A stretch of 64,000 nucleotides of DNA from Escherichia coli (GTDB lineage Bacteria; Pseudomonadota; Gammaproteobacteria; Enterobacterales; Enterobacteriaceae): assembly GCF_003334385.1 (NCBI RefSeq), contig NZ_QOWN01000003.1. The stretch is one strand, 5' to 3'. Position numbers and translations under genes: made by a program. Numbering within the stretch: position 1 is the stretch's first letter; every line of letters begins with the position of its first letter. The notes below the pieces were generated by a model. The model was not told the origin of the DNA. It saw only the letters and a list, made by a program, of their open reading frames with translations, and did not search any database. Positions 966 to 56,592 of the stretch are shown here, one piece after another.

Positions 966-1040
966 TTACCACCATCCCAGCTCAGTGCCGAGTACGACAA
1001 TAATCGCCACACCCATCATAATAATCGTTGTTTTTTTCAT
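966..1040 (-). CDS. yoaJ: small hydrophobic protein YoaJ (24 aa)
   Basis: Hand-translated minus-strand ORF ATG(1040)..TAA(966): MKKTTIIMMGVAIIVVLGTELGWW; below the ORF-track cutoff; position between yeaQ and yeaP matches the known small-protein gene. Confidence 0.5.
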   Translation of the reverse strand: MKKTTIIMMGVAIIVVLGTELGWW

Positions 1041-1042
1041 CT

Positions 1043-1141
1043 TTATGCTCCCGGGGCAGCATAGCCGCCAATAAAAAACCATGCTAAAAATACGACCGCT
1101 GTAATGAAGATTACAACCGGAAAAATAATACCGATTCGCAT
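1043..1141 (-). CDS. yoaK: small hydrophobic protein YoaK (32 aa)
   Basis: Hand-translated minus-strand ORF ATG(1141)..TAA(1043): MRIGIIFPVVIFITAVVFLAWFFIGGYAAPGA; single predicted TM helix; adjacent to yoaJ. Confidence 0.5.
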   Translation of the reverse strand: MRIGIIFPVVIFITAVVFLAWFFIGGYAAPGA

Positions 1142-4337: not shown

Positions 4338-5159
4338 ATGATGCACAGGTTGAATCTCAATGGCTATGAACCCGACCGACACCATGAAGCCGCGGTCGCA
4401 TTTTGTATTCACGCCGGAACGGATGAGTTAACCAGTCCTGTACATCAGCACCGCAAAGGACAGCTGATACTGGCGCTACATGGTGCAATTACCTGTACGG
4501 TGGAAAATGCTTTGTGGATGGTGCCGCCACAATATGCGGTTTGGATACCGGGCGGGGTGGAACATAGCAATCAAGTAACAGCTAATGCTGAACTCTGTTT
4601 TCTGTTTATCGAACCCAGCGCAGTGACAATGCCGACAACATGTTGCACATTGAAAATATCGCCCTTATGCCGGGAATTAATTTTAACCCTGGCAAACAGG
4701 ACGACGACTCAGCGTGCTGAGCCAATGACCCGCAGATTAATTCAGGTCCTGTTTGATGAACTCCCTCAGCAGCCACAACAACAGCTGCACCTGCCCGTTT
4801 CTTCTCATCCTAAAATCCGCACGATGGTGGAGATGATGGCGAAAGGGCCTGTCGAGTGGGGGGCATTGGGGCAATGGGCTGGCTTTTTTGCGATGAGTGA
4901 ACGCAATCTTGCCCGACTGATAGTAAAAGAGACGGGGTTGAGTTTTCGCCAGTGGCGTCAGCAGTTACAGCTGATTATGGCGCTTCAGGGATTAGTGAAA
5001 GGCGATACTGTACAGAAAGTTGCTCATACGCTGGGGTATGATTCAACAACGGCCTTTATTACTATGTTTAAGAAAGGCCTGGGGCAAACGCCAGGCCGAT
5101 ATATTGCGAGATTAACTACTGTTTCCCCACAATCAGCGAAACCAGACCCGCGGCAATAA
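4338..5159 (+). CDS. yeaM: AraC-family transcriptional regulator YeaM/NimR
   Basis: 273-aa ORF with C-terminal AraC-type HTH (...[27 protein letters not shown]...); divergent from yeaN. Confidence 0.85.
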
Positions 5160-5562
5160 GCGGCCCAACCGGTACGCCGCGAAACAGCGCTACGCCTAAA
5201 ACAGTGCCTACCAGCAGCCCGGCGACCAGTTGCGGCTGGCTGCCCATTAACGTCACGCCGCGCCCACCCAGCCAGGAGACAATCACGCCTACTGCAATCG
5301 CCACCAGTGATTTCCAGTTCAGAAACGAGTGAATCAAGGTTGAGGGCGGTAGCGTCCCGCTGGCGATGGGGGCCATAACGCCAATCGTCAGAATGATTAT
5401 CCCGATACTTAGCCCCTGTTTTTCAATCCACGGAAAAAAGGTGCTTAACGGTGTGACGCGGACAATGATTAACACCAGAATTGAAACGGCGACAGTGGTG
5501 TTATGACTGATAAAGCCCAGCGCAGCTAACCCGAGCAGGATCAGCAAAGTGACATCAAACAT
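5116..5562 (-). CDS. yeaL: UPF0756/DUF441 inner-membrane protein YeaL
   Basis: 148-aa highly hydrophobic ORF; 3' end overlaps the yeaM 3' end convergently. Confidence 0.8.
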
Positions 5563-5731
5563 CGTGGTTTCCTTGCCAAAAAATAATAAGCCTGCTTACT
5601 TTACGCTTGCTGCAGGAAGGAAGTAGAAAATCTTTACGTTTTTTGCATAAAAAATCAGGCGAACTGTCATCAAACTGCCATTTGTGCACGCTAACAATAA
5701 CGTGAAAACAGCTATCTCCCGGGGGCATGCT

Positions 5732-5836
5732 ATGAACGATCAAATGTTTGTCGAGACACTGATTATCACGTCATCGTTTTTTGCCATTGCTGTTGTACTG
5801 GTTTTGTCCGTTCTTCTTATCGAACGGACCGGCTAG
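5732..5836 (+). CDS. yoaI: small membrane protein YoaI (34 aa)
   Basis: Hand-translated ORF ATG 5732..TAG 5834-5836: [34 protein letters not shown]; GGGGG Shine-Dalgarno-like run at 5721-5725; sits between yeaL and yeaK. Confidence 0.5.
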
Positions 5837-6340
5837 TTACGCAGTGCGGCGGAAATTGACCAGTTCTGGTTGCGCAATGCGCAAATAATCCGCGGTTTTC
5901 AAAATAACGGATTTATCCAGCATGCCTGCATTGAAGGCGATTTCATCAAATCGTTCGAAGAGTAGAGGGTCGGCAACCAGTTTGAGTTTTGGATGGAAGC
6001 TGAAAGGGGGGATCGCGCCGAAGACACAGCCTGTGAGTTCATCGACTTCCGCCGGGCTGGCCAACGAAGCGCGTAATCCGCCTATATGGCTGGCGAGTTG
6101 GCTCAGATCGGCCTGTTGATCGGCTGCGAGGATCGCCAGAACATGTTGATTTACGCCATTGCCTTTGACTTTACATACCAGTGCCTTAGCACCCTGGCCT
6201 AGAGCGGTGCCACGAATTTCTGACACCGCTTCACATTTACCTACCGCTTCATGGGTAACGACGCGGAAGTCAGCACCTTCTTGTGATAATAAAGCGATTA
6301 ACCGCTGATGCGTCACGCTTCCTTTAGCCATTTCAGTCAT
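5837..6340 (-). CDS. yeaK: YbaK/ProX-family aminoacyl-tRNA deacylase YeaK
   Basis: 167-aa ORF; synteny. Confidence 0.85.
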   Translation of the reverse strand: MTEMAKGSVTHQRLIALLSQEGADFRVVTHEAVGKCEAVSEIRGTALGQGAKALVCKVKGNGVNQHVLAILAADQQADLSQLASHIGGLRASLASPAEVDELTGCVFGAIPPFSFHPKLKLVADPLLFERFDEIAFNAGMLDKSVILKTADYLRIAQPELVNFRRTA

Positions 6341-6382: not shown

Positions 6383-7873
6383 TCATGAACGGCTGTTTTT
6401 GTTCTGCTTATTGACATATAAACGCTCATCGGAAGCTTTATACGCATCATGTAACGTATCGTTTTCTTTCATCGCGTAAATACCGGAAGAGAAGCCGATC
6501 TCTTTCTGCGGCGCGATATGTTGCAGACGTTTTTCGATACGTTCAGGCAGTTGTGCTGCAATTTGCGGCGTCGAATCGACAAGAATGATGCAGAATTCAT
6601 CGCCACCGAGTCGGATGGCATAATCACTTTTACGAATCGACTGTTTAATCGCCTGAGCTAATAACGTAATCGCTAAATCCCCCTCCTGATGACCGAGGGT
6701 GTCATTTATTTGCTTTAACTTGTCCATGTCAATAGCAATAAACATCACCGAAGAACCGGATTGCACCAGTTTCTGCAACCGCTGCTCCAGTTCAGGGGTT
6801 AAAATTTTGCGATTATACAGTCCAGTCATCGCATCACTAATATTTTCTCGCGACACATTTTGGTATAAACGGAAGTGCATCCGCACCATATTCAGCAAAA
6901 TTAACGCCGTCAAAATCCAGAACAGAACGCTTTTCCACGAAGACGTGATAAAGTAAAGAATATCAATGGATAACGAGACACGAATGCCGCCCGGTAAGTC
7001 ATGGACGTAACTGACATACTGGAACAGATTATCTTCGCTCTGGTTGATGATAATGTCGCGCCCCGAATCGGTATCGGTTAGCGTGACATTGAGAAAACGC
7101 CAGAGGAGAGGGCGGTCATGAGTATAAAAGATATTCCGCAGATTGTTTTTGTTAATATCCAGCAGCACAATCCCTTTTAGCTGCCCTGCGACATATACCG
7201 GCGTCAGCAAACTCATCACGTTCTGTTTAGTACGCTGATCCTGGTAAATGCTCGACAATACGGTACGCCCGGTAAATACCTTTTCAATATCTTTGCGATC
7301 GATGCCAATACTTCCTGACTGCAGGAAGGACCAGTTATTCATCGCAAAGTATTCAACATTAACCGGCTCATAAAAATAGACATAGCGGTCATTGAGATCG
7401 AGATAATAGTGAAATTTCTCTTCGGCCATCCCAAGACCTGAACCGTAATCATCCTGGTGGCGGTTACCTTCCACTGCCTGATCAAAAGCGGGTAATAGTG
7501 CTGCAGCTTCCACAATTGTGTCGCAGTCAGTGGATGCGGTTTGTAGTGTGCCGCGTAAGCCCGGGTATTTATGGGCAGTCAGGTTTAAGCCATGGGTGTT
7601 ATTGGCAGACTCAAAAGCCTCGCAGATGGCGCGCCGCTGTTCTGGCGACACTTCCGACTGCTCAGCAGCGAGAGCGCGCATCACATGCGCGGCAATACTC
7701 TGATTCTGATACTTATCATAAAGAAAGGAGGAGTCTGCTTTCTGCACGATATAGCGCAGATAGGCACTCATTGCTCTGTCGCTGGCGACAAGTTCAAAAA
7801 TAAGGAAGGAAGATGTCAGCACAATGACACTTGCGGCGATAAAATGCCGGAGCATTCTATGGTGCAATTTCAT
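6383..7873 (-). CDS. yeaJ: membrane-anchored GGDEF diguanylate cyclase DgcJ/YeaJ
   Basis: C-terminal GGDEF domain with canonical RLGGDEF; longest ORF starts at 8053, but the ATG at 7873 (MKLHHRMLRHFIAASVIVL...) gives the expected 496-aa product with an N-terminal TM helix. Confidence 0.85.
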   Translation of the reverse strand: MKLHHRMLRHFIAASVIVLTSSFLIFELVASDRAMSAYLRYIVQKADSSFLYDKYQNQSIAAHVMRALAAEQSEVSPEQRRAICEAFESANNTHGLNLTAHKYPGLRGTLQTASTDCDTIVEAAALLPAFDQAVEGNRHQDDYGSGLGMAEEKFHYYLDLNDRYVYFYEPVNVEYFAMNNWSFLQSGSIGIDRKDIEKVFTGRTVLSSIYQDQRTKQNVMSLLTPVYVAGQLKGIVLLDINKNNLRNIFYTHDRPLLWRFLNVTLTDTDSGRDIIINQSEDNLFQYVSYVHDLPGGIRVSLSIDILYFITSSWKSVLFWILTALILLNMVRMHFRLYQNVSRENISDAMTGLYNRKILTPELEQRLQKLVQSGSSVMFIAIDMDKLKQINDTLGHQEGDLAITLLAQAIKQSIRKSDYAIRLGGDEFCIILVDSTPQIAAQLPERIEKRLQHIAPQKEIGFSSGIYAMKENDTLHDAYKASDERLYVNKQNKNSRS

Positions 7874-8053
7874 GATAAATGGCACTCCTTCGGTTAGTGA
7901 AACGAGAAAACCAGATAAAGTTCGATTGCGGCCTGGCACAGGGGCGCTAATTATACTCATCTCTGCGCCGCTGGGGAGGGGAAATTTAGGGGTAATAGTA
8001 ATAAATTGTATGCAAAAGCCACGCAAAAAGCATGGCTCTGAATATTTTTGCAC

Positions 8054-56484: not shown

Positions 56485-56592
56485 CGTCTGACGTGCTACG
56501 CCTGTCAGGCCTATTCGACTCCTGCAATGTATTGAATTTGCATAGTTTTATAGGTCGAATAAGGCGTTCACGCCGCATCCGGCGTGAACAAA
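56485..56592. repeat. REP/BIME element between cho and nadE
   Basis: ...gacgtgctacgcctgtcaggcctattcgactcctgcaatgtattgaatttgcatagttttataggtcgaataaggcgttcacgccgcatccggcg...: inverted REP units flanking a conserved ctgcaat-attgaatttgca core also seen at about 63.66 kb. Confidence 0.6.

Follow-up and report, generated by a model that had tools for sequence, protein, structure and literature searches.

In the SafA–PhoQ, MgrB–PhoQ and PmrD–PmrA pairs, a small protein induced by one two-component system alters the activity of another, and YoaI of Escherichia coli follows the same logic. YoaI differs from SafA, MgrB and PmrD in its target kinase, shares no homology with them and has an extra post-transcriptional input from Mg2+; it is an activator, whereas MgrB is an inhibitor. 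Parallels are also found at EnvZ itself. MzrA acts from the periplasmic side. Located in the inner membrane, MzrA (127 aa) binds EnvZ and increases the output of OmpR-P, and YoaI likewise targets EnvZ; MzrA and SamT each couple another signal to EnvZ–OmpR, as YoaI does. MzrA is larger than YoaI, and no sequence relationship of MzrA or SamT to YoaI was found or would be expected. In comparison with MzrA, YoaI is proposed to act through the cytoplasmic residue Glu31 (PMC11429745).

The gene yoaI is already known, and so are the way it is regulated and what it does. It has been in the annotation since the small-protein surveys of 2008, its membership of the Pho regulon was confirmed in 2012 and 2023, and its function in EnvZ–OmpR signaling was published in 2025. 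PhoB binding and regulation, translation, membrane localization, and the binding and activation of EnvZ all come from published experiments. A PhoB-bound site lies upstream of yoaI, and the RNA-seq values of the gene were 12,266 in the wild type and 28 in ΔphoB, which corresponds to PhoB-dependent transcription of ~440-fold; the occupancy of the locus by RNA polymerase and sigma-70 also depends on PhoB (PMC10294691). Vellappan et al. (bioRxiv 2024.09.13.612970, then Sci Signal 2025; PMC11429745) showed with a PyoaI-YFP reporter that promoter activity was PhoB dependent and PhoQ independent. In the same study, initiating-ribosome footprints at the yoaI ATG (Ribo-RET) rose roughly 12-fold in low Mg2+, and chromosomal YoaI-SPA was found in membrane fractions in amounts that increased as Mg2+ fell.

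The link to EnvZ was also established there. A bacterial two-hybrid assay gave a YoaI–EnvZ signal, and no interaction with PhoQ or PhoR was detected (PMC11429745). Deletion of yoaI lowered PomrB, a reporter of EnvZ–OmpR, by 1.4–2-fold, which is a modest phenotype, and the strongest effects came from plasmid overexpression, under which PomrB was induced >7-fold in a manner that required envZ (PMC11429745). YoaI changed ompC and ompF reciprocally, ompC going up and ompF down, and the E31A and E31Q substitutions abolished EnvZ binding and activation without changing protein level or localization (PMC11429745).

Identification of yoaI in the window

The window is the whole 64-kb stretch of E. coli DNA analyzed here. 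The original prediction had read a 34-codon frame in it, from ATG to TAG, as the membrane peptide gene yoaI, with a G-rich Shine–Dalgarno-like run 5′ of the ATG, a stop codon abutting that of yeaK on the opposite strand, and a length below the cutoff of the ORF list. Translation of the + strand gave exactly this 34-aa product, which falls short of the 60-aa default of the list; the G-rich run is present (GGGGG), and one stop codon follows immediately on the other, which leaves an intergenic distance of 0 nt. The name and the membrane assignment also held, as judged by the RefSeq annotation and a full-length family match. In RefSeq, the gene annotated at the matching bases, flanked by yeaL and yeaK, is yoaI (WP_000999630.1), with the product name "small membrane protein YoaI". 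The yoaI coding sequence of a 100%-identical genome matched that of the window base for base, and the genes of this neighborhood were, in order, yoaF, yeaO, nimT, nimR, yeaL, yoaI, yeaK, dgcJ and cdgI. When compared with YoaI of E. coli K-12 (WP_000999630.1), the amino acid sequence, position, Pho box and Shine–Dalgarno motif were all the same. The coordinates of the features are collected in Table 1.

In a profile search, the peptide matched the NCBIfam equivalog NF041475 with 79.8 bits (E = 1.1e-22; curated cut-off, 45 bits), and residues 1–34 aligned with profile positions 1–34 of 34. YldA (NF041476) and YoaK (NF033821) are of similar size to YoaI and have a single hydrophobic helix. The second-best profile was that of YldA, at 14.1 bits against a cut-off of 45, a score that reflects the compositional likeness of transmembrane helices and not membership. 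Among 5426 complete E. coli genomes, a 451-nt query around yoaI was matched in 5412 and the coding sequence alone was found in 5356.

Table 1 Features of the yoaI locus and its surroundings (positions in the window unless stated otherwise)
Feature	Position	Strand	Description and basis
yoaI coding sequence	5732..5836	+	ATG 5732-5734, TAG 5834-5836, 34 aa; sequence, RefSeq annotation and family match
yeaK (mischarged aminoacyl-tRNA deacylase)	5837..6340	-	ORF and annotation; stop reads TTA on the + strand, 5837-5839
Pho box (PhoB binding site) CTGTCATCAAACTGCCAT	5664..5681	+	two TGTCA-type half-sites 11 bp apart
Presumed -10 hexamer AACAAT	5693..5698	+	inferred from sequence and the usual Pho-promoter geometry
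Shine–Dalgarno-like GGGGG	5721..5725	+	6 nt 5′ of the ATG
Predicted hairpin GTCCGTTC-N8-GAACGGAC	5809..5832	+	perfect 8-bp stem within the 3′ coding end of yoaI
YoaI transmembrane helix	about residues 9-30 of the peptide		single; C-terminal tail E31-R32-T33-G34
RF02751 ES036 (CssrF) matches	56507-56549, 63653-63695	-	42.9 and 55.5 bits

Hydropathy of the peptide and chance expectation

The window contains 165 ATG ORFs of 30–50 aa, so a 34-codon ORF is not significant by its length alone, and the significance of the yoaI ORF rests on its conservation. Of the 165, 3 contain a 19-residue window whose hydropathy is 2.5 or higher, and yoaI was the only one that also had a Shine–Dalgarno-like motif. 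Residues 9–30 of YoaI make up an uncharged segment of 22 residues that averages 2.69 on the Kyte–Doolittle scale. As to topology, the short C-terminal tail that follows this segment would probably be cytoplasmic.

Conservation of the yoaI reading frame

Loci were collected by anchoring on yeaK, which avoids a bias towards yoaI-bearing genomes, and 80 loci from different Enterobacteriaceae species were sampled. A homologous ORF of 31–35 aa was found in 42 of them, in Escherichia, Salmonella, the Citrobacter koseri and amalonaticus groups, Enterobacter, Lelliottia, Trabulsiella, Yokenella, Kosakonia, Cedecea and Pluralibacter. The yeaL–yoaI–yeaK synteny of the window, with yoaI and yeaK convergent, recurred in 40 of the 42 loci, in which the stop codons lay −4 to +30 nt apart; at the remaining two (L028 and L030) yoaI was ~2.2 kb from yeaK.

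The codon analysis covered 40 loci, the two Kosakonia loci being omitted because of their differing N-terminus. The first 32 codons were intact in all 40. Mean pairwise differences per site were 0.30, 0.14 and 0.51 at codon positions 1, 2 and 3, respectively, and pN/pS was 0.345, whereas each shifted frame gave a higher value, about 1 in one and about 2 in the other. I12, F16 and S26 were invariant (40/40), and V27 and E31 were each retained in 39 of 40 loci. In a published set of 57 gammaproteobacterial YoaI orthologues, S26, V27 and E31 were invariant (PMC11429745). Judged by these substitution patterns, the yoaI reading frame is clearly under purifying selection, and the check on frame conservation suggested with the original prediction thus came out in its favor in about 40 species.

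Within E. coli, the yoaI DNA of the window is one of several alleles whose differences are mostly synonymous. One allele with differences at 5 of the 105 nt encodes an identical protein, and another with 6 nt differences carries the single change V21A. A phmmer search of 1.84 billion representatives returned 23 hits to YoaI at E ≤ 1e-3. Several of these were longer calls of 42–94 aa in which the YoaI match lay at the C- or N-terminus, and they are most likely over-extended gene calls.

Patchy distribution at the yeaK–yeaL site

At the other 38 of the 80 species loci, yoaI was missing from the yeaK–yeaL site; these include Klebsiella, the Citrobacter freundii group, Raoultella, Kluyvera, Atlantibacter and Pseudocitrobacter. 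Among the yeaK–yeaL spacers that could be measured, those without yoaI were mostly 60–190 nt long, compared with about 260–330 nt for those with it. The spacers of these 38 loci were also searched, on the strand that yoaI would occupy, for small hydrophobic ORFs that might be diverged relatives; none was convincing, and a single 23-aa ORF in Kluyvera cryocrescens is no exception. Because yoaI is absent from the yeaK–yeaL site in these 38 species, its role there would be dispensable or replaced.

A disrupted allele was also observed. In E. coli strain A30 (NZ_CP092500.1, 1891270–1892355), an IS5-family transposase lies within the 3′ end of yoaI. After L28, the product runs into an ...SVLRLC ending and lacks Glu31, the residue needed for EnvZ binding; its RefSeq name is still YoaI.

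Promoter and Pho box

The Pho box CTGTCATCAAACTGCCAT upstream of yoaI differed from the consensus CTGTCATAAAACTGTCAT by 2 mismatches and was the sole match in 64 kb, where 0.03 would be expected by chance. The published PhoB ChIP-seq motif TGTCATCAAACTGCCATT, assigned to yoaI/yeaL by Fitzgerald et al. 2023 (PMC10294691), was located at 5665–5682 and overlaps the Pho box by 17 nt. In most orthologous loci, a TGTCAT-N5-TGTCAT-type element starts 61–76 nt 5′ of the start codon.

In Pho promoters, the Pho box takes the place of the −35 element and lies about 10–12 bp upstream of the −10. On this geometry, the hexamer AACAAT is the presumed −10 element of yoaI, and transcription would start near 5705, giving a leader of about 27 nt. 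A generic sigma-70 scan found no −35/−10 pair at the yoaI promoter, and no match would be expected from it, because a PhoB-dependent promoter lacks a −35 element.

Translation start

A G-rich motif (GGGG, GGAG or GAGG) is found in most yoaI orthologues at the place equivalent to that of the Shine–Dalgarno-like run in the window. The frame is also open further upstream, from GTG 5684, which would give a 50-aa ORF, and the start could therefore have been mis-annotated or the ORF could be a chance one that is not translated. For the latter, earlier studies did not detect YoaI-SPA in rich medium or under several stresses, as quoted in the later report (PMC11429745). Against the longer product, GTG 5684 comes after the Pho box but before the presumed −10 and the likely start of transcription, and it would therefore not be part of the mRNA. 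The family profile covers residues 1–34 of 34, and nearly all orthologues begin at the same M/V-N-D position with a Shine–Dalgarno-like motif just 5′ of it. Ribo-RET placed an initiating ribosome at ATG 5732, and YoaI-SPA was detected in low Mg2+ (PMC11429745). The 50-aa start and the chance ORF were both rejected on the conservation, the full-length profile match and the published Ribo-RET and western blot, and their combined probability is close to nil. Translation, the other check named with the original prediction, is thus supported for the start at ATG 5732 by the published Ribo-RET and YoaI-SPA western blot (PMC11429745).

A mini-ORF, ATG-CTA-TGA, lies at 5727–5735 (+), and its stop overlaps the yoaI start codon. 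It was rejected as a real ORF, since its ATG is 1 nt from the Shine–Dalgarno-like run, which is too close, and since it is absent in other species; it is probably meaningless.

Structure of the leader and the type I toxin alternative

With regard to the Mg2+ effect, a leader structure that sequesters the Shine–Dalgarno motif was sought and none was found; the region 5705–5775 folded worse than shuffled sequences (z = +1.18). A simple hairpin that occludes the Shine–Dalgarno motif would not explain the Mg2+ effect, because this region is unstructured. A long-range pairing of the motif that appeared in a 261-nt fold was rejected: it uses sequence antisense to yeaK and disappeared in shorter folds.

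The properties of YoaI also call to mind the type I toxins. YoaI is short and very hydrophobic, like Ibs, Ldr, TisB and DinQ, and its overexpression causes a lag phase of 8–10 h that is independent of EnvZ and Glu31 (PMC11429745), which would fit a peptide that mainly damages the membrane. However, a type I toxin is recognized by an antitoxin that is an antisense RNA or sRNA and by a long, structured leader that controls translation, and neither was found at yoaI: the Rfam scan gave no hit to such an RNA family at this site, and the predicted leader is short (about 27 nt) and unstructured. The gene is single-copy and syntenic, and what is conserved is the specific residues S26, V27 and E31, not generic hydrophobicity. 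Cells survive the roughly 440-fold induction of yoaI, which belongs to an ordinary nutritional regulon (PMC10294691), and the lag is gone in ΔphoQ, which argues for a specific pathway (PMC11429745). A type I toxin identity was rejected on the Rfam scan of the locus, the leader fold, the residue-specific conservation and the induction within the regulon, and we regard it as highly improbable. Since the lag requires PhoQ but neither EnvZ nor Glu31, YoaI would have at least one further target.

Taken together, the stretch 5732–5836 is almost certainly the genuine, translated, single-copy chromosomal yoaI, which encodes a PhoB-induced single-pass inner-membrane peptide that stimulates EnvZ.

The convergent pair yoaI–yeaK

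A terminator scan found no intrinsic terminator-like site between yoaI and yeaK or 3′ of yoaI. Because no intrinsic terminator follows yoaI, its transcripts would have to run antisense into yeaK. The yeaK–yoaI pair is among the 165 convergent overlaps ("excludons") found in ≥50% of 58 MG1655 transcriptomes (PMC12288877), and the arrangement in the window, overlapping transcripts without a terminator between them, is that by which a convergent excludon is recognized. The yeaL–nimR and yeaO–yoaF pairs are also catalogued as convergent transcript overlaps in MG1655 (PMC12288877). In the window, nimR (4338..5159, +) is convergent with yeaL (5116..5562, −), with a 44-nt overlap of the coding sequences at 5116–5159.

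This arrangement raises the possibility that yoaI–yeaK is a putative excludon in which PhoB-driven read-through lowers yeaK by transcriptional interference or by RNase III cleavage of the duplex, the peptide being secondary or additional. The absence of any spacing between the two stop codons, the lack of a terminator-like site downstream of yoaI and the catalogued overlap all point in this direction. When Fitzgerald et al. compared the two strains by RNA-seq under phosphate limitation, yeaK was lower in the wild type (389/413) than in ΔphoB (709/655), that is, log2 −0.8 or about 1.7-fold, with an adjusted p of 0.0115 (Table S1), while yoaI stood at about 12,000 compared with about 28 in ΔphoB (PMC10294691). 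This drop is compatible with interference by the induced yoaI transcription; the effect is weak and possibly indirect. The change in yeaK is small, however, and is one among many indirect effects of a phoB deletion. The YoaI peptide is itself under selection and has its own demonstrated activity, so its coding function is not secondary. Moreover, many genera have 20–30 nt between the two genes, and in several Enterobacter-type loci a separate hairpin is located at the stop or just after it, which suggests that termination is normally provided. Overall, an excludon of this kind seems unlikely, and the coding function of yoaI remains the preferred reading.

The hairpin at the 3′ end of yoaI

The predicted hairpin at the 3′ coding end of yoaI (Table 1) has arms that encode S26-V27 and E31-R32, the codons of the most conserved YoaI residues. 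The E. coli alleles that were aligned all keep it, their differences being confined to the loop and flanks. In two Escherichia lineages (L005 and L006) it was weakened or broken by synonymous or nearby changes, and a counterpart sought in other genera was absent. The hairpin found in several Enterobacter-type loci is another one, placed at the yoaI stop or just 3′ of it. No T-run follows the E. coli hairpin on either strand. A conserved structural RNA was rejected, the hairpin being broken in these two lineages and absent in other genera.

It is a tentative and rather doubtful proposal that read-through from yoaI lowers YeaK, the tRNA-editing deacylase, in phosphate starvation and that the hairpin serves as a putative processing or stabilizing element for one or both mRNAs. 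The overlap of the two transcripts is itself already catalogued, and the effect of read-through on yeaK is the only reading in which novelty is left.

Other small genes and features of the window

Two further genes for small membrane proteins lie near the start of the window, beside yeaQ (659–907, +), and both are known. The first, yoaK, is encoded at 1043–1141 (−) as MRIGIIFPVVIFITAVVFLAWFFIGGYAAPGA and matched NCBIfam NF033821 (YoaK) with 69.1 bits against a cut-off of 32. Just downstream of yoaK, at about 966–1040 (−), MKKTTIIMMGVAIIVVLGTELGWW is encoded within a 38-aa ORF (966..1082) as a small membrane-protein gene. This second peptide is probably YoaJ.

Only two Rfam hits reached the gathering threshold in the 64 kb, and both were to the RF02751 ES036 (CssrF) sRNA. 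If the window is colinear with a near-identical genome, they would lie near spy/ves and celF/chbG. The presence of two copies of this 43-nt model suggests a repeated element that is REP-like or terminator-like, not a dedicated sRNA. The dgcJ frame at 6383–8053 (−) is open from a GTG and encodes 556 aa, and in RefSeq the dgcJ of the identical region has 1491 nt (496 aa); this difference in length is a matter of ordinary start-codon choice.

Discussion

The ORF, its family membership, its synteny, the Pho box and the Shine–Dalgarno motif were observed in the present analysis, as was the signature of purifying selection on the frame. Combined with the published work, they fit a simple sequence of events. 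Under phosphate limitation, phosphorylated PhoB binds the Pho box and brings RNA polymerase to a promoter without a −35 element. A short, presumably unstructured leader with its GGGGG Shine–Dalgarno motif then drives translation from ATG 5732, and the peptide enters the inner membrane, probably with the E31-R32-T33-G34 tail in the cytoplasm. Through Glu31, YoaI binds the sensor kinase EnvZ and raises the output of EnvZ–OmpR, with omrB and ompC going up and ompF down. In low Mg2+, the abundance of the protein also increases by a post-transcriptional route that is independent of PhoQ.

As a case, yoaI is a real gene of fewer than 60 aa that can be recognized from raw sequence, and it has little significance beyond this. 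For the cell, YoaI joins PhoR–PhoB to EnvZ–OmpR, linking phosphate and Mg2+ starvation to the control of the envelope and porins. Its patchy presence at the yeaK–yeaL site suggests that this connector is a piece of lineage-specific wiring and not part of the core machinery.
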